DNA from: Cenarchaeum sp. | GTDB taxonomy: Archaea > Thermoproteota > Nitrososphaeria > Nitrososphaerales > Nitrosopumilaceae | Reading direction: 5' to 3' | Length of the DNA: 64,000 bases | Assembly (NCBI GenBank): GCA_965242695.1 | Contig: CBDESU010000001.1 | Span: forward strand, 384,001 to 448,000 | In this document: piece after piece, positions 17,611-52,397 of the stretch | Numbering within the stretch: position 1 is the stretch's first letter | Layout of the letters: each line of letters opens with the position of its first letter | Position numbers and translations under genes: made by a program | Notes under the pieces: generated by a model | Seen by the model: the letters and a program-made list of their open reading frames with translations, nothing else | Database searches by the model: none | What the model was told of the DNA's origin: nothing

Positions 17611-18266
17611 GGTTCCTCGTCATAGACAACTACGACTCGTTCGTGTACAACATCGCGCAGTACCTCGGCGGCCTCGGCGTCGCATGCGACGTCGTCCGAA
17701 ACGACGCCGTTACGGCGGGCGAGGCCCTGTCCGGCCGGTACGACGCGGTCGTCGTCTCGCCCGGGCCGGGATCGCCCGGCGATGCGCGCAGCTTTGGCGT
17801 GTGCGGCGACGTCATACGGGGGGCCGCATCGCGCGGCCGCCCCCCGGTGCTAGGCGTGTGCCTCGGCCACCAGGGGATCGTCGAGGCGTTCGGCGGGCGC
17901 GTCGTCAACGCCGCGCGCGTGAGGCACGGCAAGACGAGCCCCGTCCGGCACACGGGCGCGCCGCTGTTTGACGGGGTGCGCAACCCGTTCAGGGCCACCC
18001 GGTACCACTCGCTCGTCGGCGACCGCACGGTGATCCCGGGCTCGCTAGAGGTGACGGCCGTGGCCGAGGACGACTCGGAGGTAATGGCCGTGCGGCACCG
18101 CGAGCACCCGATACAGGGGGTGCAGTTCCACCCAGAGTCGATAATGACCGAGGACGGCATGCGCATACTGGCCAACTTTGTGAGGGGCGTGGGAGGCGGG
18201 GGCGGGGCGGCGCCGGGTGCGGCCGTCGTCGCCGCCGCCGATGCGGAAAGGGCGGTGGAGCGCTGA
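17607..18266 (+). CDS. trpG: Anthranilate synthase component II (glutamine amidotransferase)
   Basis: IDNYDSF, SPGPG, GVCLGHQ, RYHSL, QFHPES; ATGA overlap with trpE. Confidence 0.95.
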   Translation: MRFLVIDNYDSFVYNIAQYLGGLGVACDVVRNDAVTAGEALSGRYDAVVVSPGPGSPGDARSFGVCGDVIRGAASRGRPPVLGVCLGHQGIVEAFGGRVVNAARVRHGKTSPVRHTGAPLFDGVRNPFRATRYHSLVGDRTVIPGSLEVTAVAEDDSEVMAVRHREHPIQGVQFHPESIMTEDGMRILANFVRGVGGGGGAAPGAAVVAAADAERAVER

Positions 18267-19411
18267 TGGCCGCCGCGACGGCCGATGCGCTCGCAAGGCT
18301 GCGAGCCGGCGGGCCGCCGCTGTCAAGGGCAGAGGCGGCCGCCGTCGCCGGCGAGATGCTCGAGGGCAGGTGCGGCGCCGGCGACTCTGGCGACCGCCTC
18401 GCCGCCGACCTCCTGCTTGAGATGGCCGGCCGCGGCGAGGCCGAGGATGAGCTGCTCGGCTTTCTCGACGCCGTCTCCTCGCGCGTGCTTGCGATCGATC
18501 TTCCAGAGCCGCCGCCGGGGTTTGGCGGCGCCGGCGCGATCGACGTGTGCGGCACGGGCGGCGACGGCATGCGGACCGTCAACGTCTCGACGGCCGCCGC
18601 GTTCGTGGCCGCCGCCGCCGGCGTGCCGGTCGCAAAGTACGGCAACCGCTCGAGCTCGGGCGGGACGGGAAGCGCCGACATCATAGAGGCGCTCGGGTTC
18701 GATCTCGGGATGGCGCCGGCCGGCGTGCCTGCCGTGTTCGCGCGCATCGGTATATGCTTCATGTTCGCGCCGGCGCACAATCCAGGCATGAGAAACGTGG
18801 CCGCGGCGCGCCGGATCGCGGCAGGCCGCACGGCGTTCAACGTCGTCGGCCCGCTGACAAACCCCGCGCGGGTGCGCCGCCAGCTCGTCGGCGTCTCCTC
18901 GCCGGGCCTACTCGAGACGGTTCCGCACCTGCTTGCCGCCCGCGGGGCCGAGCTTGCCGTGGCGGTGCGCTCGTCCGACGGAATGGACGAGCTGTCGGCG
19001 GCGGTTCCGAGCGACGTGTGCGAGGCGCGCGCCGCCCCTGGCGGCGGCGAGGGGAAGGATAGGCGGGGGGATGCGGCCGTGCGCAGGTACACAGTAGACC
19101 CGTCGTCGCTTGACCTTCGGGGGAGGGACGACGGCCGTGGCCGCGGCGCATCGGACCTGCGGACGTCCTCGGCCGCCGAGTCGCTGAAAAAGTTTGTCGC
19201 CGCGGTCGACGGGACGGCCGGAAGCACGGTGCAGGATACGGTCGAGATCAACGCTGCGGCGGCCCTGTATGCGGGCGGCGCGGCAGCCGGAATATCTGAC
19301 GGGCTTGCGTCCGCCCGCGAGGCCGTAGAGTCGGGCAGGGCATCGCGGCTGCTCGGCGAGTTCGTCTCGCTGTGCGGGATGCCCGAGCGCCTAGAGGAGG
19401 CGAGGGGATAG
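18266..19411 (+). CDS. trpD: Anthranilate phosphoribosyltransferase
   Basis: DVCGTGGDG, NVST, KYGNRS, GSAD, GPLTNP, DGMDE. Confidence 0.95.
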   Translation: MAAATADALARLRAGGPPLSRAEAAAVAGEMLEGRCGAGDSGDRLAADLLLEMAGRGEAEDELLGFLDAVSSRVLAIDLPEPPPGFGGAGAIDVCGTGGDGMRTVNVSTAAAFVAAAAGVPVAKYGNRSSSGGTGSADIIEALGFDLGMAPAGVPAVFARIGICFMFAPAHNPGMRNVAAARRIAAGRTAFNVVGPLTNPARVRRQLVGVSSPGLLETVPHLLAARGAELAVAVRSSDGMDELSAAVPSDVCEARAAPGGGEGKDRRGDAAVRRYTVDPSSLDLRGRDDGRGRGASDLRTSSAAESLKKFVAAVDGTAGSTVQDTVEINAAAALYAGGAAAGISDGLASAREAVESGRASRLLGEFVSLCGMPERLEEARG

Positions 19412-20258
19412 TGGCCGCCGGCGGGACGGGGGACGGCAAGGCGGACGCCCGGGGCGGCGGCATGCTAGCGCGCCTCGTCGAGAACTCGCGCGCGGCCCTC
19501 AGCGAGGGCGTGTACGACGATCCGCCGCCCGGCCGGCCGTGCGGCCCGCGCGGCGCCCTGTCCGGGGCCGTCCGGCGCGCGGCCGCGTCCGGAATGGCGC
19601 CCGTGATTGCAGAGGTAAAGTTCGCATCCCCGTCGATGGGGACCATACGCGAGGGCGGCGATCCGGCGGCGATCGCCGGCGCCATGGCGGCGGGCGGCGC
19701 GTGCGCCCTGTCCGTCCTCACGCAGCCGCGCCTGTTCGGCGGCTCGCCGGGCTCGCTCGCCGCCGTGCGCGCGGCCCTGCCGGCGATGCCGATCCTCATG
19801 AAGGACATCGTAGTAGACTACAGGCAGATCGACGCGGCGCGCGCGCTCGGCGCCGACTGCGTCCTGCTCATGCAGTCGCTGTTCGACGGCGGCCACCTGT
19901 CGGGGATGGACGGCATGGTGGGCCGCGCGCACGATCTCGGCCTAGAGGTCCTGGCCGAGGCGCACACCCCGGAAGAGTTCCGGCACGCGGCCGCCTCGGG
20001 AGCCGACCTGCTCGGCATCAACAACCGCGACCTGGACACGCTAGGCGTCGACCTGGGCGCGACCGGGGCGGTCCTGGCCGGCGGGCGCGGCGCCGCTGCG
20101 GCGGGGCGCCCCGTCGTCTCCGAGAGCGGAATCTCGTCGCCGCGCGACGTTGCAAGGCTGCGCGCGGCGGGCGCTGACGCGTTCCTCGTCGGCACGGGGA
20201 TAATGTCTGCAGAGGGCGGCAACGTTGAAAAGGCCGTCGCGGGGCTGGTCGGCGCCGC

Positions 20259-20262
<4 letters not shown>
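19411..20262 (+). CDS. trpC: Indole-3-glycerol phosphate synthase
   Basis: [32 protein letters not shown]; TAGTG overlap with trpD. Confidence 0.93.
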
Positions 20263-21565
<1,303 letters not shown>

Positions 21566-21569
<4 letters not shown>

Positions 21570-22408
21570 CGCGCATCTCTGACGTTTTTTCGCGCCTGCG
21601 CGGCCGCGGCGAGGCGGCCCTTGTCGCGTACATGATGGCGGGGCACCCGTCCTGGCGGGCGTCGGACGCGGTGCTGCGCGGCATGGCGTCCGGCGGCGCA
21701 GACATTGTAGAGCTGGGATTTCCGTTCTCCGACCCGCTCGCCGACGGGCCCGTGATACAGGACGCCGCGGCCCGCTCGCTGCGCGGCGGCGCGACGTTCG
21801 GCCGCTTCCTGTCGTTCGCAAGGAGGGCCCGCAGGATGACCGACGCGCCGCTCGTCCTCATGACGTACGCAAACGTGCTGCACAGGCGGGGGTTCGCCGC
21901 GGCCGTCTCCGAGGCCGCATCGGCCGGGATAGACGGCTTTGTCGTGCCCGACCTGCCCGTCGACGAGTCGGCAGAGTACCGCGATGCGGCCGCCGCCGCC
22001 GGGGCGGACACGATATTCCTGGCGTCCCCGAACACGTCGGACGAGAGGCTCGCCAGCATAGCGGACGCCTCGTCCGGCTTTCTCTACCTGGTCGCCGTGT
22101 ACGGGACGACCGGGGCAAGGCGGTCGGCGGCGCGGTACAGCCTGCAGGCGGTTCGGAGGGCGAGGAGGATCGCCGGCGCGTCGGTTCCCGTCGGGGTCGG
22201 GTTTGGCGTGTCCACGCCGGCCGACGTGTCGGCGTACGTCTCGGCCGGCGCCGACGCCGTGGTCGTCGGCAGCGCGCTCGTCGGGCTCGCGGGCAGCGCG
22301 CCGGGCGGGCGGCTGGAGCGGGACGTCTCGGCGCTGACGGCCCGGCTAAAGGGGGCGACGGCGCGCCGGCGCGGCGGCAGACAGGGGAAGCATCTGCCTG
22401 CGCGGTAG
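21566..22408 (+). CDS. trpA: Tryptophan synthase alpha chain
   Basis: [36 protein letters not shown]. Confidence 0.96.
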
Positions 22409-22457
22409 ATGCGCGCGATGCGGGCCGCCTGGCGCCCTTGCCGCCTGCCTTTCCTGC

Positions 22458-22820
22458 CTATGGGCCGCCTGGCGCCCTTGCCGCATCGTAGGCGTCCTCG
22501 AGCGCGGCCCCGACCATGTCGACTGCGTTGTTGCGGCCAAACGGCCTGCCACTCCTCTCGCATGCGCGCCTGTACATGTTGACCGCGGTAAACCGCGGGT
22601 GCATTGCCTCGTACGCGCCGCCGGGCATCTCGATGAACGCGCCGGCGGCGACAAGCGACTCGGCCACTGCCTCGGCACCGCCGCAGGGAATGCCGGCCGC
22701 CTCTGCGATCTGCGCTGCCGTCATCCGGCCGCCGGACGTCACGGCAACAAAGGCCGCGGTCTGCTCGCCGGTGAGCCCGATCTCCTCGATCAGAACGCGG
22801 CGCACTGCATCGCTGTCCAT
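22458..22820 (-). CDS. TrmB-like winged-helix transcriptional regulator
   Basis: GLT.EQ..AF...GRMTAAQIAE..GI...SLV..G pattern, 120 aa. Confidence 0.7.
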   Translation of the reverse strand: MDSDAVRRVLIEEIGLTGEQTAAFVAVTSGGRMTAAQIAEAAGIPCGGAEAVAESLVAAGAFIEMPGGAYEAMHPRFTAVNMYRRACERSGRPFGRNNAVDMVGAALEDAYDAARAPGGP

Positions 22821-23284
22821 GCGGAGGAGGGCGGGGCGGCCCCTTATCTTTTGTCGCCCCTCCCCCTGCGGCGCGACGGCCGCGACACCTCGCTACATGC
22901 GGCCCGGACTACCGCGCTTCGCAGGCCCTGCGGGCATTCCGATCGCCCGCGGCCCTGCGGCGGCAAAGGTCGAGGCCGCAGGATGCCCGTGCCCGCAAGC
23001 GCCGGCGTGGCCTATAGCGACGGACTTTGCTGTGTTCATGTTGCGCTTTCTCTAGGCATACGAGTGACAGCGTTTGTGGGGGGCGCGTGAGGGCCGCGCG
23101 TGCCTCTTGACGATCAAAGTCAACCAGAGCTCGCCCGGACTAACTGAAGCCACCTAGAGCCGCCGCTATAGGCACGCCGCCTGCCGGCTGCCCGTTGCCG
23201 CGCCGCTTTTTTTGGGACTGCCAAATGGATGGCGCGATCGCGCTCCCTTCGCAGCCTTTATCACCCCTCGCAGGGGGGTCGATT

Positions 23285-23377
23285 CGGCGACGGCGGGAGT
23301 CGAACCCGCAAGGCGCTTGGTGTCTCAAGCGCCGGCGTGGTCTGAGCACGCTGGGCTACCGATTGCCCATCGTCGCC
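23285..23377 (-). tRNA. Non-canonical tRNA-like gene, anticodon CAG, long variable arm, G73
   Basis: 93 nt: acceptor GGCGACG/CGTCGCC; D arm GGGC-AATCGGTA-GCCC; anticodon arm GCGTG-CTCAGAC-CACGC; V stem GGCGCTTG/CAAGCGCC; T arm GCGGG-TTCGACT-CCCGC. Confidence 0.85.
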
Positions 23378-23461
23378 ATTTTTATCCGAGGCTCGCATCC
23401 GCCGCGCTACGCGATCGCACCCCCTTCGCATACTTTATAACAGCCCGATTCGGGCTCGATT

Positions 23462-23554
23462 CGGCGACGGCGGGAGTCGAACCCGCAAGGCGCTTGTGGT
23501 GGCAAGCGCCGGCGTGGTCTAAGCACGCTGGGCTACCGATTGCCCATCGTCGCC
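23462..23554 (-). tRNA. Non-canonical tRNA-like gene, anticodon UAG, long variable arm, G73
   Basis: Identical to 23285-23377 except for position 34 (loop CTTAGAC) and the 6-nt variable loop (CCACCA versus AGACAC). Confidence 0.85.
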
Positions 23555-23575
23555 ATTTTTACTAAAAATCAATGC

Positions 23576-23589
23576 TTAATATACCTTTT
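23576..23589 (-). promoter_or_regulatory. BRE/TATA promoter of the tRNA-like pair
   Basis: Minus-strand AAAAGG-TATATTAA ending 21 nt before G1 (23554). Confidence 0.7.
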
Positions 23590-24090
23590 ACCATAGCACT
23601 ATACGGTATAACTAGCATGCACGCTTTCCTGCGGGTGGCAGGCCGTCCCGCTCCATGCGCGTAGGACGCCGCGCGCGGACCGAACCTGCATAAGACGGGA
23701 GGCGACAGGGGGCGTTTTGCAGAACAGGACCTGGGCCGGCCCCTCCGGCGGCCGGGTCGCACCGGGCGCGTCGGCTTTTGGACGAAAAGCGTGCCTGCGG
23801 GCACTGCCCGGCGCGGCCGGGGGCCGCAGGGCGCCCGCCGCCTGGCGCATTTTCAGCCGCGGGGGCGCATTGGGCACCGCCGCGGCGCAACTGCCCCGGC
23901 CGCGTGGCGCGCCAGGCGCATTGTGCGCTGGCATGCCCGTCCCCGCTTCGGCGCGGCCGAGACGTGGCCGGCCGGCGCCGATGCCGCCCGAGCGTACCGG
24001 GTATCGTACCTGCGACTACGGGCGGCCGGCATGCCGCCGCCTTGGCGCCGCATGCCCTACGATTTTAAGGGCCGCCGGCGGGGGCCGCGC

Positions 24091-26100
24091 GTGCGGATAC
24101 TGCTGCTCCACTGCGACCATGCCGAGTACAGGCCGGTCAAGAAGGAGATCAACCTCGCCGAGGATGTAGAGCCGAAGGCTGACTCGATCGACGACGGGGC
24201 AGTCGCATTCGTGACCGTAGAGGCCGGCGACGACGGCGGAACGGCCGCGGCCGAGGCCGCCGCAGAGGTTGAAAAGTCGCTCGGCCGCATAGGCTGCCGC
24301 CGGCTGCTCCTGTACCCCTACGCCCACCTCGGCACGAACCTTGCGGCCCCTGCCGCCGCCCTTGCCGTCCTGCGGGACCTGGAGGAGCGCGTGCGCGCGG
24401 CCCTGTCGGCGCCGGAGAAAGGGGCCGCCGGCGGCCCGCCGGACGTGCGCCGCGCGCCGTTCGGGTGGACAAAGTCGTACAGCCTCAGCGTAAAGGCGCA
24501 CCCGCTCGCCGAGCACTCGATCTCGGTCGGAGGCGGCGGCGGGGACGGCGGCAGGGGCGCGGACGGACGATCTTCAGCCGCCGCCGGCGGCCGCCCGGGC
24601 GGGGATGCGGGGGAAAAGGCCGCCTCCGTTGCAGATGCCGCCGACAGCGTAGCGCTCCGCTCCGAGGCGCGCCTCGAGTCCGCCTGGCGCATAATGACGC
24701 CCGACGGGAGGATGCACGACGCCGAAACGTTCGACTTTTCGGGCCACGCAAACCTAGAGGTGCTCGCCAAGTACGAGGCGGCCAAGAGGCGCGCGTCCGA
24801 CGAGCCGCCGCCCCACGTGGGGCTCATGAAGCGCCTGGCAATTGCCGACTACGAGCCGGCGTCGGACCCGGGCAACATGCGCTTCTACCCGAACGGCCGC
24901 CTGATAAAGTCGCTCATCGAGCGGTACGTGACGAAGAGCGTGCGCCAGTACGGGGGCTACGAGGTCGAGACGCCCGTAATGTACGACGCGCGGCACCCGG
25001 GCATGGCTAGCTACTTTGACCGGTTCCCTGCGCGGCAGTACAACATCGGCTCGGACGACGAAGACGGCGGAGGCGGCGGCCGGCGCCTGTTCCTGAGGTT
25101 TGCCGCCTGCTTTGGGCAGTTTATGATGGCCCACGACTTTCAGATGTCGTACCGCAACCTGCCCTACCGCCTGTACGAACTGACGCGGTACAGCTTTAGG
25201 CGCGAGCAGTCGGGCGAGCTCGTCGGCCTGCGCCGCCTGCGGGCGTTCACCATGCCCGACTGCCACGCGTTCTGCCGCGACATGCCGCAGGCCATACGCG
25301 AGATGTCCAAGCGCTTCGACCTCTCGCGCGAGGTCGTGTCAGGCCTGGGCATACCCGGCGGGGCTTACGAGATGGCCGTGCGCATGACCGAGGAGTTCTA
25401 CGCCGAGCACGGCGAGGCGGTGCGCGCAATGGTCGCCAGGCACGGCCGGCCCGTCCTCGTCGAGATGTGGCGCGAGAGGTTCTTTTACTTTGTGCTAAAG
25501 TGGGAGTTCAACTACATCGACGCGGCCGGCAAGGCGTCGGCCCTGTCGACCGACCAGATCGATGTCGAGAACGGCGAGCGGTACGGCATCGAGTTCGTCG
25601 ACGAGGGCAACGAGCGCCTGCACCCGATCATCCTGCACAACTCGCCGAGCGGCGCCGTCGAGCGCGTCATGTACGCGCTGCTAGAGGAGGCAGCGGCCGC
25701 GGCCCGGCGCGGGTCAAAGCCCGAGCTGCCGCTCTGGCTCTCGCCGACGCAGGTGCGCGTCATACCCGTAAGCTCCGAGTTCGAGCAGAACGCGGTGGCG
25801 CTTGCCGGGCGCATCGGCCACCGGAAGGTGCGAGTCGACGTCGACGACCGGACCGAGACGCTCGGCAAGCGCATACGCGACGCCGAGCGCGAGTGGATAC
25901 GGTTCATACTAGTCGTCGGCAAGCGCGAGGCCGCCATGGACGGCGGCATGGTCAGCGTCAGGGACAGGCGGACGGGGCGCACGGAGGACATGCAGCTAGA
26001 CGACCTGATCGGCGCGATCGAGGGCGAGGCCGACGGCAAGCCGTTCGCCGGCCTCAACGTGCCGTTCTACCTGTCGAGGCGCCCGCAGATAATGGTGTAG
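24091..26100 (+). CDS. thrS: Threonine--tRNA ligase, archaeal type with N-terminal editing domain
   Basis: MRILLLHCD, YPYAHL, RAPFGWTK, LRFAACFG, FTMPDCH, HNSPSGAVER, LPLWLSPTQVR; TATA box at 24063. Confidence 0.96.
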   Translation: MRILLLHCDHAEYRPVKKEINLAEDVEPKADSIDDGAVAFVTVEAGDDGGTAAAEAAAEVEKSLGRIGCRRLLLYPYAHLGTNLAAPAAALAVLRDLEERVRAALSAPEKGAAGGPPDVRRAPFGWTKSYSLSVKAHPLAEHSISVGGGGGDGGRGADGRSSAAAGGRPGGDAGEKAASVADAADSVALRSEARLESAWRIMTPDGRMHDAETFDFSGHANLEVLAKYEAAKRRASDEPPPHVGLMKRLAIADYEPASDPGNMRFYPNGRLIKSLIERYVTKSVRQYGGYEVETPVMYDARHPGMASYFDRFPARQYNIGSDDEDGGGGGRRLFLRFAACFGQFMMAHDFQMSYRNLPYRLYELTRYSFRREQSGELVGLRRLRAFTMPDCHAFCRDMPQAIREMSKRFDLSREVVSGLGIPGGAYEMAVRMTEEFYAEHGEAVRAMVARHGRPVLVEMWRERFFYFVLKWEFNYIDAAGKASALSTDQIDVENGERYGIEFVDEGNERLHPIILHNSPSGAVERVMYALLEEAAAAARRGSKPELPLWLSPTQVRVIPVSSEFEQNAVALAGRIGHRKVRVDVDDRTETLGKRIRDAEREWIRFILVVGKREAAMDGGMVSVRDRRTGRTEDMQLDDLIGAIEGEADGKPFAGLNVPFYLSRRPQIMV

Positions 26101-26920: not shown

Positions 26921-27805
26921 TCATGCCGGCCCCTCCCCCTCCTTATTGTCTCTTTCCCAGAGCCTGAAGAACTCGTCGGGCGGCAGCCACCCGATCGACG
27001 AGTGGACCCTGTTGGCGTTGTAGTCCTTGAAGGCGTAGGCCAGGTACTTCTCGGCCTCCTGGAAGCTCTCAAAGTCGTGCGGGCGGACGTAGTCGCGCTT
27101 GAGCGTGTTGTGGAACGACTCGATGTGGCCGTTCTGCTGGGGGGTGCTGACCCAGATGTACTCGACGACGAGGCCGAGGACCTTCATCGCCGCCCTGAAC
27201 TCGCCGCTCCTGTACTGCGAGCCGTTGTCGCAGCGCACGCGGATCCCCTTGACCCGCTCGGGCCGCAGCTCCGCCACGACCTCGGTCACCGACTGGACGG
27301 CCGACGACGCCTGGGCAGACGTCGAGAACACGTATCCAAGCCAGCGGCGCGTGAACACGTCGAACACGTTGAAGCAGTAGCACCACCCGTCGACGCCGCA
27401 GTCTATATACGTAATGTCCGTCTCGAGCAGCTGGTACGGCGCCGTGGGGAAGAACTGCGGTTTCCGCGCCTTTGCAGCCCGAATCGCCTGTTTTTTCGTC
27501 ATTTTTGGCCCTTTTATCTCCAAGATGTCGCATATTCGCACCACCTTCTTGCGGTTGACCCGGCGCCGCATCTCGTACGATGCGGTGTGCGCGATCATCC
27601 TCGTCCCGTAGGTGGGCCTCTCCGAGGATATGCGGGTCACGGCCTTTGCGACGGCCATGTCGATGTCCCTCTTGACGGGCCTCTTCTTGTAGTAGTACGC
27701 CTGGCGCGAGACGCCGCAGTACTTTAGCGCCCGGGTCAGGCTCACCTTGCCCTCCGCTATCCTCTTGACCGCGCTCACCCTCTCCTCAACTCCCAGCTTT
27801 TTTTT
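26921..27805 (-). CDS. IS3 transposase OrfB (integrase core), reached by -1 frameshift
   Basis: YGTRMI, TDITYI, DVFTR, DNGSQY, PQQNGHIESF, YNANRVHSSIG; slippery A8G at 27797-27805. Confidence 0.9.
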   Translation of the reverse strand, partial: KKKLGVEERVSAVKRIAEGKVSLTRALKYCGVSRQAYYYKKRPVKRDIDMAVAKAVTRISSERPTYGTRMIAHTASYEMRRRVNRKKVVRICDILEIKGPKMTKKQAIRAAKARKPQFFPTAPYQLLETDITYIDCGVDGWCYCFNVFDVFTRRWLGYVFSTSAQASSAVQSVTEVVAELRPERVKGIRVRCDNGSQYRSGEFRAAMKVLGLVVEYIWVSTPQQNGHIESFHNTLKRDYVRPHDFESFQEAEKYLAYAFKDYNANRVHSSIGWLPPDEFFRLWERDNKEGEGPA

Positions 27806-28074
27806 AACTCGGCATTGACCAAGGTCAGCTCGCCGACGACGATCTTGAGCGACTCGTTCTCCTTGGCCAGCGCCTTTGCAGGATCGCTCCTGCCGTTGCC
27901 TCCTATGCCGGCGAGCTCCCTCTTGCCCGCGTCCATGAACCTCTTGCGCCAGTTGTCGAACGTGGTTGGCGAGAGGCCGTACTTGCGGCATATCCCGGCC
28001 ACGCCGATGTTCGTCGAGAGGTACTCGACCACTATGTCCACCCGCTCCTTGGCGGTCCACCGCTTGTGCGTCAT
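27775..28074 (-). CDS. IS3 transposase OrfA (HTH plus coiled coil)
   Basis: WTAKERVDIV..ICRKYGLSPTTFDNWRKRF..LAKENESLK. Confidence 0.9.
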   Translation of the reverse strand: MTHKRWTAKERVDIVVEYLSTNIGVAGICRKYGLSPTTFDNWRKRFMDAGKRELAGIGGNGRSDPAKALAKENESLKIVVGELTLVNAELKKSWELRRG

Positions 28075-52323: not shown

Positions 52324-52397
52324 AGCCAATGAGGGGATTTGAACCCCCGACCCTTCGCTTACAAAGCGGATGCTCTGCCGGGCTGAGCTACATTGGC
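52324..52397 (-). tRNA. tRNA-Thr(UGU)
   Basis: GCCAATG/CATTGGC acceptor, U8, GCTC/GAGC D stem, loop TT-TGT-AA, GTTCAAATC T loop, U73. Confidence 0.93.

Follow-up and report, generated by a model that had tools for sequence, protein, structure and literature searches.

Two noncanonical class II transfer RNA (tRNA) genes lie in tandem on the minus strand of the window, the whole 64,000-nucleotide stretch analysed here (Cenarchaeum sp., assembly GCA_965242695.1, contig CBDESU010000001.1, positions 384,001 to 448,000). The copy at 23285–23377 carries the leucine anticodon CAG and that at 23462–23554 the leucine anticodon UAG, on one and the same serine-like body. From our covariance-model searches and genome comparisons, we conclude that the intact pair belongs to what appears to be an accessory, mobile family of class II tRNAs in some ammonia-oxidising archaea. 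The first-pass annotation of this DNA had presented the two genes as an isolated pair not recognised from thaumarchaea; they turn out instead to be members of a multi-copy, patchily distributed and apparently mobile family that also includes genes with isoleucine and phenylalanine anticodons.

Structure of the two genes and their family

ARAGORN called both genes on the minus strand (23284–23378, cag; 23461–23555, tag), and the Rfam tRNA family RF00005, which has a gathering score of 29, matched both over their full length (46.3 bits, E 1.1e-6 for 23285–23377; 47.8 bits, E 4.1e-7 for 23462–23554). The start-to-start distance is 177 bp, and the copies differ at five of 93 positions, one being the wobble base and the other four lying in the variable loop. 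In the Rfam alignments and ARAGORN drawings, both tRNAs have a 7-bp acceptor stem followed by A8 and U9, a 4-bp D stem with an 8-nt D loop containing G18 and G19, A26, a 5-bp anticodon stem, and an anticodon loop with C32, U33 and A37. In the variable region, a single unpaired base precedes a perfect 8-bp stem capped by a 6-nt loop, and two unpaired U follow. The T stem has 5 bp, which makes the acceptor/T arrangement 7/5, and the discriminator base is G73. By their cloverleaf, G18 G19, U33 and T-loop consensus, both are tRNAs in the sense of RF00005, as ARAGORN also finds. This confirms the earlier description of two 93-nt cloverleaves with paired stems 177 bp apart, which differ only at the wobble base and in the variable loop and share G73, an 8-bp variable stem, A37 and A at position 8.

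Other structural readings were rejected. ARAGORN alternatively draws an 8-bp acceptor stem with a U-1·G73 pair and A74 as the discriminator; we do not follow this drawing, because the base 3′ of G73 is not conserved and varies between copies, being C in six of the seven copies of the congener described below and G in one copy of the host genome. Noncanonical tRNA introns are known in the host's phylum (PMC8450103), and the variable arm was considered as a bulge–helix–bulge intron of a class I tRNA; the insert is a perfect 8-bp hairpin, with zero bulges in the drawings. A selenocysteine tRNA would have a 13-bp branch (9/4), a long D stem and the anticodon UCA, as against the 7/5 arrangement, 4-bp D stem and CAG or UAG anticodon found here. 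The window also contains an ordinary tRNA-Thr(UGU) at 52324–52397 (minus strand; U73; 61 bits), the body of which is unrelated to the noncanonical family.

The genome from which the window derives (G000) comprises 3.89 Mb in two contigs, with a G+C content of 67–68%, and holds four copies of the noncanonical tRNA. Two of these were found on the other contig by blastn of the region, one with the anticodon CAG and one with the isoleucine anticodon GAU, the latter on the body shared by the other three. A covariance model built from the four copies (R1), which scores the CAG and UAG copies of the window at 119 and 117.7 bits, was searched in 101 related genomes. It recovered seven copies in a congeneric genome (G004), at 91–112 bits and with the anticodons AAG, UAG, UAG, AAG, GAG, GAU and GAG, the last GAG copy being degenerate with C33 and U73; outside these two genomes the best match did not exceed 52 bits. 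The covariance search of related archaeal genomes yielded the family itself in G004 and diverged relatives in a few other genera. The AAG copies of G004 lie at L033:12829-12921 and L035:4774-4866, and one of them has U8 instead of A8; to our knowledge, A34 is not normally used in archaeal tRNAs.

Across the 11 copies of G000 and G004, the body is almost invariant, and variation is concentrated at positions 32, 34 and 36–38 and in the variable loop. Standard pairs occupy 98.4% of the pair cells, a value that falls to 35–55% when the partner is slid by one to three columns, and compensatory changes are found at 27:43 (CG in six copies, GC in five) and in the variable stem (AU in four, GC in four). 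The stems are therefore preserved among homologues. G73 is present in ten of the copies and U73 in one, and ten likewise have G18 G19, the T loop and U33 intact; A37 occurs in nine, while two G004 copies have G37, as canonical tRNA-Leu does. Every copy has U30-A40. The anticodon is of the leucine type in nine and GAU in two, and none of the 11 genes encodes CCA, compared with 20 of the 38 canonical tRNA genes of G000.

Host tRNAs, the genetic code and amino-acid identity

G000 encodes a threonyl-tRNA synthetase (ThrRS) with an archaea-specific editing domain, an archaeal AmoA and several intron-bearing tRNAs, including a tRNA-Ile(GAU) with A73. These features mark the host as an archaeon, and AmoA agrees with the thaumarchaeal origin guessed in the first-pass annotation. 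Its canonical tRNA-Leu genes (CAG, UAG, GAG and CAA; 85–99 nt) all have A73 and G37. ARAGORN draws their variable arm with a 3-bp stem, a 4-nt loop and three unpaired 3′ bases (the CAA drawing is unclear), the loop reading UCAG or UUAG in three of them and being UUAG-like in the GAG tRNA. Because canonical tRNA-Leu(CAG) and tRNA-Leu(UAG), both with A73, are also encoded in G000, the noncanonical CAG and UAG genes are supernumerary, and the possibility raised earlier that they might be the only CUG and CUA readers of the genome does not hold. Four further ARAGORN calls of 79–100 nt in G+C-rich DNA of G000 (C1:492108-492206, C1:1147966-1148058, C1:1633203-1633302 and C1:1812040-1812118) have no Rfam tRNA match and are probably false positives.

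The genetic code of the organism is standard, and CUG and CUA are not reassigned. When the window's ThrRS was aligned with nine relatives, of which five come from loci with 34–38% G+C, leucine stood opposite CTG in 160 of 208 cells, opposite CTA in 37 of 45 and opposite CTC in 125 of 171, and isoleucine stood opposite ATC in 81 of 116; the relatives' own codons were often TTA or TTG. Serine occurred six times, in each case opposite CTC; in this alignment, neither the six most frequent residues opposite CTG or ATC nor the four residues opposite CTA included it. The view that the code is not globally reassigned, originally based on UvrB, is thus upheld on ThrRS.

The body is more serine-like than leucine-like, as had been proposed, in its G73, in the two unpaired 3′ bases of its variable arm and in its family-model scores. 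Two unpaired bases also follow the variable stem in the tRNA-Ser of G000, and three in its tRNA-Leu. With filters off, R1 gives the tRNA-Ser of G000 36.6 (GCU), 28.6 (UGA) and 26.2 bits (CGA), and the tRNA-Leu 28.6 (UAG), 22.5 (CAG) and 18.2 bits (GAG), R1 itself carrying leucine anticodons. Among the 28 best-per-genome loci in relatives, nine are tRNA-Ser and three have leucine anticodons, with A73 in two of these and G73 in the third (L026); the acceptor stem of one GAU-bearing relative (L005) is the same as in a canonical archaeal tRNA-Ser(GCU). Measured against tRNA-Leu, the CAG and UAG copies share the NAG/YAA anticodon. They depart from it in the discriminator, which is A73 in all four canonical tRNA-Leu and G73 or, once, U73 in the family. 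They depart from it also in the arm and base 37, the family having an 8-bp stem, a 6-nt hypervariable, A/C-rich loop, two unpaired 3′ bases and predominantly A37. Measured against tRNA-Ser, G73 and the long variable arm are both present. According to the sections of the literature drawn on here, G73 is a strong determinant for archaeal seryl-tRNA synthetase (SerRS), which reads the size of the long variable arm and not its sequence, and the anticodon plays no role in serylation (PMC9976931). The same sections state that archaeal leucyl-tRNA synthetase (LeuRS) reads the variable arm sequence-specifically, that G73 is an antideterminant for Haloferax LeuRS, and that a change from A73 to G73 converts leucine into serine identity (PMC9976931). 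Overall, the interpretation offered by the first-pass annotation is partly supported, its best-supported idea being a serine-type body on leucine anticodons.

Cassettes, insertion sites and relatives in other genera

Similarity among the copies is confined to about −60 to +40 around the tRNA. The copies are promoter–tRNA–trailer cassettes of about 200 bp, located at different sites in the two congeneric genomes. In the window, a repeat search (family D1) and blastn delimit two tandem cassette units of tRNA plus flanks at 23233–23561 (minus strand), with 152 nt aligned at 88% identity and a period of 177 nt. The upstream flank of the copies contains a purine run and then a TATA-like box that ends ~23 nt before the mature 5′ end. 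For the UAG copy, a candidate promoter resembling a B recognition element (BRE) and TATA box can be read in the sequence at 23576–23589 (minus strand), as an AT-rich octamer at −29 to −22 after the purine run. Its distance is that of canonical genes, since an AT-rich box starts at −27 to −34 in 36 of the 38 canonical tRNA genes of G000. No AT-rich box lies at the canonical promoter distance of the CAG copy. The earlier claim of a BRE/TATA promoter at the right distance consequently stands for the UAG copy (−29) and falls for the CAG copy, which would either be silent or share a transcript with the UAG copy, located 84 nt upstream of it.

A second, conserved TATA-like box is found ~21–29 nt downstream of the UAG copy, at 23433–23441 (orientation ambiguous), and a weaker one with 6/8 A/T lies behind the CAG copy at 23257–23265. 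A downstream octamer with at least 7/8 A/T is present in three of the four G000 copies (6/8 in the fourth), always at +20 to +22; the box is also present behind all seven G004 copies and behind related genes in two other genera of very different G+C content. Of the 38 canonical tRNA genes of G000, one has such an octamer, as do 7% of random windows. When the box is read on the antisense strand, the sequence flanking it resembles a canonical BRE context, and the ~29 nt that separate it from the 3′ end of the tRNA mirror the sense promoter. The box may therefore be an inward antisense promoter; it may also be an outward element of the sense strand.

The pair lies in DNA that the congener lacks. 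The gene for a TrmB-like regulator and that for ThrRS are 93 bp apart in G004 and separated by ~1.24 kb in G000, and blastn of window positions 21500–24400 against the G004 locus (L078) leaves the ~1.24-kb stretch 22803–24042 without a counterpart. This stretch contains a tentatively assigned, decayed third cassette copy at 22955–23205 (minus strand; repeat D2, 58 nt, 67–72% identical to the tRNA 3′ halves; R1 8.8 bits, E 0.05) and a possible fourth relic at 22877–22954 (R1 11 bits, E 0.017). The decayed copy is split at 23014–23170 by a 157-bp insertion resembling a miniature inverted-repeat transposable element (MITE), with 29-nt terminal inverted repeats that are 72% complementary (inverted repeat I1). 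A search of sequencing runs for window positions 22900–24300 gave no RNA run. Contigs of four runs attest the DNA, and their assemblies are interrupted at the repeats. In runs X1 and X7, position 23013 is joined directly to 23171 and the MITE-like element is missing; contig depth is raised over this element, which suggests that it is present in many copies. The contigs of run X7, from a more divergent strain, extend into the CAG copy and also include the inter-tRNA spacer, and therefore the pair exists in that strain too.

On one side of the insertion, trpD, trpC, trpB and trpA stand in a row (18266–22408, plus strand), followed on the other strand by the 120-amino-acid TrmB-like regulator (22458–22820). 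On the other side are ThrRS (23791–26100, plus strand) and, 0.8 kb beyond it, a transposase with an rve integrase core of the IS3/IS481-like type (26921–28060, minus strand). ThrRS forms one continuous frame in G000, G004 and G002 (loci L078–L088 compared); most other relatives give two neighbouring matches instead, one to the editing domain (query residues 1–150) and one to the catalytic part (from ~185), a pattern suggestive of a split or frameshifted gene. The other G000 copies neighbour genes for alanyl-tRNA synthetase (AlaRS), hisI, a short-chain dehydrogenase, a helicase and an N6-methylase, and the G004 copies those for a geranylgeranyl reductase, MoxR, thymidylate kinase, PhoU, a Nop protein, S-adenosylhomocysteine hydrolase and an IS66 transposase. 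The two genomes share no insertion site, and no neighbouring gene is common to the copies of the G000 and G004 loci, the contexts being mostly housekeeping. No integrase was found near the copies in G000, G004 or G120, a genome described below.

Beyond these two genomes, the distribution is patchy. An R1 match at E<=1e-5 occurs in seven of 151 genomes of the host's taxonomic family (G000 included); this search and an inspection of lower-scoring matches brought to light diverged class II tRNAs with G73 and non-serine anticodons in other genera. There are six copies in G120 (GAU three times, CAG twice, and GAA), four in G032 (GAA three times, and GAU), two in G060 (GAU and CAA) and one each in G136 (GAU), G045 (GAU), G021 (GAG) and G184 (UAA), together with one doubtful copy in G088 (CCU, with C33). 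Two GAU copies of G120 (L065:1501-1588 and L069:1501-1588), perhaps decaying members or structural variants, have a D arm 7 nt shorter in an otherwise intact gene. A35 is present in 27 of the 28 related genes, and positions 34 and 36 vary; both this count and the prevalence of the family refer to genes reached by these searches. The anticodons correspond to the four canonical serine anticodons after replacement of base 35 by A (GCU to GAU, GGA to GAA, CGA to CAA and UGA to UAA) or are one further step away (NAG). Of 401 genomes of the host's family, eight contain the 3′ end of one body type and three that of another.

The complete 2.2-Mb genome G032, from another genus, allows a full inventory, and supernumerary status was examined there and in G000. 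All 44 of its Rfam tRNA matches above the family cut-off were inventoried; they include a canonical tRNA-Phe(GAA), an intron-bearing tRNA-Ile(GAU) and full leucine and serine sets, in addition to the four noncanonical genes. At C1:465909-469998 of this genome (L092, L017), tRNA-Phe is followed in order by a tyrosine recombinase, two small open reading frames (ORFs), a noncanonical GAA tRNA and a weakly matching TrbL/VirB6-like protein. The recombinase gene abuts tRNA-Phe, and the noncanonical tRNA lies ~1.1 kb, or two short ORFs, beyond it; the whole string looks like an integrated element. Two further integrases of G032 adjoin tRNA-Ser(CGA) and tRNA-Ser(GCU).

The first-pass annotation had also suggested a search of viruses; viral contigs gave zero matches to the exact D-arm/T-loop pattern and to three 3′-end patterns. 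In wider collections, from which near-host records may be excluded, the D-arm/T-loop pattern matched only acidobacterial tRNA-Ser(GCU), in one genome-contig and three metagenome-contig records. These tRNAs have A8-U9, a D arm identical to that of the family and G73, and score 60–64 bits with R1. The contig with the closest outside match, from Solibacteraceae, contains ~30 tRNA-like matches in 2.7 kb (L038:860-3500), and its tRNA-Ser(GCU) has A8.

Possible roles and comparison with known tRNAs

The explanation that we favour, with rather less than even confidence, is serylation with competitive mis-decoding. The UAG copy would be transcribed from its own BRE/TATA box, and the RNA would be processed and then receive CCA. 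Charging would be by SerRS rather than LeuRS, because the body combines G73 with a long arm of serine geometry and shows none of the marks of the tRNA-Leu of G000, namely A73, G37 and a short arm whose loop is of the UCAG/UUAG type. The charged tRNA would compete with the canonical tRNAs and place serine at CUG and CUA, as the sister copies would at CUC/CUU and AUC/AUU. The family would then consist of natural mistranslating or toxic tRNAs held at low activity, an archaeal counterpart of the bacterial allo-tRNAs.

Several observations weigh against this explanation. The weaker serine determinant G30-C40 is replaced by U30-A40 throughout the 11 copies, and the tRNA-Ser of G000 has a D arm that differs from the family's (4-bp stem, 8-nt loop, A15-U48), so that the orientation of the variable arm may differ. 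Since SerRS ignores the anticodon, serylation does not account for the conservation of A35, which, with 34 and 36 varying, would be easier to explain by a hydrophobic cargo such as leucine or by a partner that reads A35. Serine at the commonest leucine codons of a genome with 67% G+C should be harmful, yet three intact copies with leucine anticodons are kept. A34 in two G004 copies and a base 37 mismatched to the codon type suggest relaxed selection on decoding; in addition, the CAG copy has no promoter box of its own, and some copies are decaying.

The conserved A35 is central to the idea that the tRNAs are charged with leucine or another hydrophobic amino acid, which we regard as unlikely. 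The pair would then be spare leucine isoacceptors, and the GAU and GAA sisters would make conservative Ile-to-Leu or Phe-to-Leu errors in the manner of nev-tRNAs. Positions 34 and 36 drift among leucine, isoleucine and phenylalanine anticodons, as expected of tolerated hydrophobic swaps; most copies of the genus have leucine anticodons; the choice of anticodons seems to follow the G+C content of the locus (NAG in high-G+C genomes, GAA/GAU in the low-G+C one); and the G37 of two G004 copies is that of canonical tRNA-Leu. Such charging is difficult to reconcile with G73, where all four canonical tRNA-Leu drawn have A73, and with the blocking of Haloferax LeuRS by G73 and the reading of specific variable-loop bases by archaeal LeuRS, as the source reports in the part considered (PMC9976931). 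The variable loops of the family are hypervariable and A/C-rich, and the leucine body ranks below the serine tRNAs in R1 scores although R1 carries leucine anticodons.

Alternatively, the cassettes may serve no decoding purpose, which we consider rather unlikely. They would then form an RNA module of a selfish or regulatory nature, such as a harmful tRNA-like RNA accompanied by an antisense RNA from the +21 to +29 box, or they would be mobile carriers of promoters, spread by tandem duplication and integrative elements. The patchy occurrence by body type (eight and three of 401 genomes), the non-orthologous sites, the tandem arrays with decayed members and the nearby mobile elements (a MITE, an insertion sequence and, in G032, an integrase) all fit such a module. 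The same applies to the second TATA-like box, fixed at +21, conserved in three genera and present in one of 38 canonical genes, and to its BRE-like antisense flank at a distance that mirrors the sense promoter; a similar view of allo-tRNA(UAU) is taken by Mukai et al. in the part of their study used here (PMC5389517). However, the full cloverleaf, its compensatory changes and the key loop bases (G18 G19, T loop and U33) are kept, which points to selection on the tRNA shape and not on the promoter alone. The typed patterns moreover went unmatched in viral contigs, and no toxin-antitoxin genes were seen beside the copies examined, where the larger ORFs were scanned.

A role as nuclease-resistant backups or decoys, guarding leucine and isoleucine decoding against viral or toxin anticodon nucleases, would agree with the extra, accessory and mobile copies that present host-tRNA anticodons on a different body. 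We consider it very improbable, as a backup requires the right amino acid, yet the leucine identity marks are missing from the body; the GAU, GAA and AAG variants and the mismatched base 37 are unfit for a faithful backup, and no nuclease gene is consistently adjacent. A further idea is that the tRNAs cooperate with the neighbouring ThrRS or deliver amino acids to a non-ribosomal enzyme; ThrRS and AlaRS both edit mischarged serine. The pair and ThrRS are divergently oriented, and another copy (L001:5051-5143) lies ~750 nt upstream of AlaRS (L001:1451-4294), so that two of the three family loci in G000 adjoin a class II synthetase, which may be chance. G004 has ThrRS without the tRNAs there, and none of its five loci (seven copies) has a synthetase directly adjacent, the nearest being a class I match ~4 kb from the degenerate GAG copy. 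A dedicated synthetase was sought and rejected: class IIa and class Ia searches show no extra paralogue common to both carriers, the extra G004 match being HisRS. Searches for cyclodipeptide synthases and leucyl/phenylalanyl-tRNA–protein transferases gave no match, and the acceptor stem and G73 are unlike those of the window's tRNA-Thr. The proposed role as non-ribosomal carriers is thus unsupported, and we give this idea hardly any weight.

Serylation with mis-decoding can also be joined to the antisense box in a self-contained mistranslation cassette, which would be an archaeal tRNA-based addiction or abortive-infection module. We regard this joint scenario as improbable. The serine-charged tRNA would read the commonest hydrophobic codons of the host, CUN/AUC in G+C-rich or UUY/AUY in A+T-rich genomes; an antisense RNA from the inward TATA box ~29 nt beyond the 3′ end would restrain it; and the cassette would move among ammonia-oxidising archaea by integrative elements and tandem duplication.

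tRNAs that join the identity of one amino acid to the anticodon of another are the raw material of code change and of deliberate mistranslation. They have been documented in bacteria (allo-tRNAs and tRNAProX) and in eukaryotes (CUG-clade yeasts and nev-tRNAs). A full-text literature search, the reach of which did not extend to subscription journals and supplementary tables, found no description of such tRNAs in archaea. The archaeal family is distinguished by its 7/5 shape, archaeal promoters, second TATA-like box, striking restriction to A35 and apparent mobility among the ammonia oxidisers, a group of ecological importance. If serylated, it would provide a natural archaeal ambiguity of leucine, isoleucine or phenylalanine to serine, as well as orthogonal-looking tRNA scaffolds; if it acts outside translation, it would represent a novel type of mobile RNA module, derived from tRNA, among archaea.

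Among canonical tRNAs, the family is closest to archaeal tRNA-Ser(GCU), which scores highest in R1 of the canonical tRNAs of G000 and shares G73, the long variable arm, A37 and the two unpaired 3′ bases. GAU, the anticodon found in the largest number of genomes (seven), differs from GCU by C35 to A only. The D arm, A15-U48, the 8-bp variable stem, U30-A40 and the acceptor sequence differ in the family. In CUG-clade yeasts, a tRNA-Ser(CAG) of serine identity reads the leucine codon CUG, and an account drawn on in part describes competition of this tRNA with a leucine tRNA in Ascoidea. Unlike in these yeasts, where the codon is captured or stably ambiguous throughout the proteome, CUG and CUA of G000 still align with leucine and canonical leucine tRNAs are present; the archaeal family is furthermore multi-copy, mobile and patchy. 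The nev-tRNAs of nematodes and the nov-tRNAs of eukaryotes (Hamashima et al.) resemble it in being lineage-specific, supernumerary class II tRNAs with an anticodon (e.g. isoleucine) foreign to class II amino acids and a possible low-level alternative decoding, as the consulted portion of the work describes (PMC3333845). The nev-tRNAs are, however, charged with leucine according to that portion (PMC3333845), whereas the G73 of the archaeal family argues for serine, and the host domain, the cassette structure and the mobility set the latter apart.

The bacterial allo-tRNAs offer the closest parallel. As described in those parts of the study on which we rely, they are class II tRNAs with G73, a long variable arm and mostly non-serine anticodons, including those for isoleucine and leucine (UAA, CAA, UAG and CAG), and are supernumerary, tied to transposons or other mobile DNA, and represented in part by inactive or decayed members (PMC5389517), all of which applies to the archaeal family. 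The same parts mention an association of allo-tRNAs with toxin-antitoxin genes and many inactive examples, and suggest Acidobacteria as the source of the irregular tRNA polycistrons of Mukai et al. (PMC5389517). In turn, the nearest outside matches of the archaeal family, acidobacterial tRNA-Ser(GCU), have other tRNA genes as neighbours, and one lies within a dense tRNA array. Differences concern shape and host: allo-tRNAs are defined by an acceptor/T arrangement of 8/4 or 9/3, giving a 12-bp branch, and were serylated and active in Escherichia coli, as far as the parts cited go (PMC5389517), whereas the archaeal family has 7/5 (8/5 with the optional ARAGORN pair), BRE/TATA promoters in an archaeal host and anticodons restricted to A35. 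With its serine marks, non-serine anticodons and mobile DNA, the family would thus seem to work like an allo-tRNA without being one.

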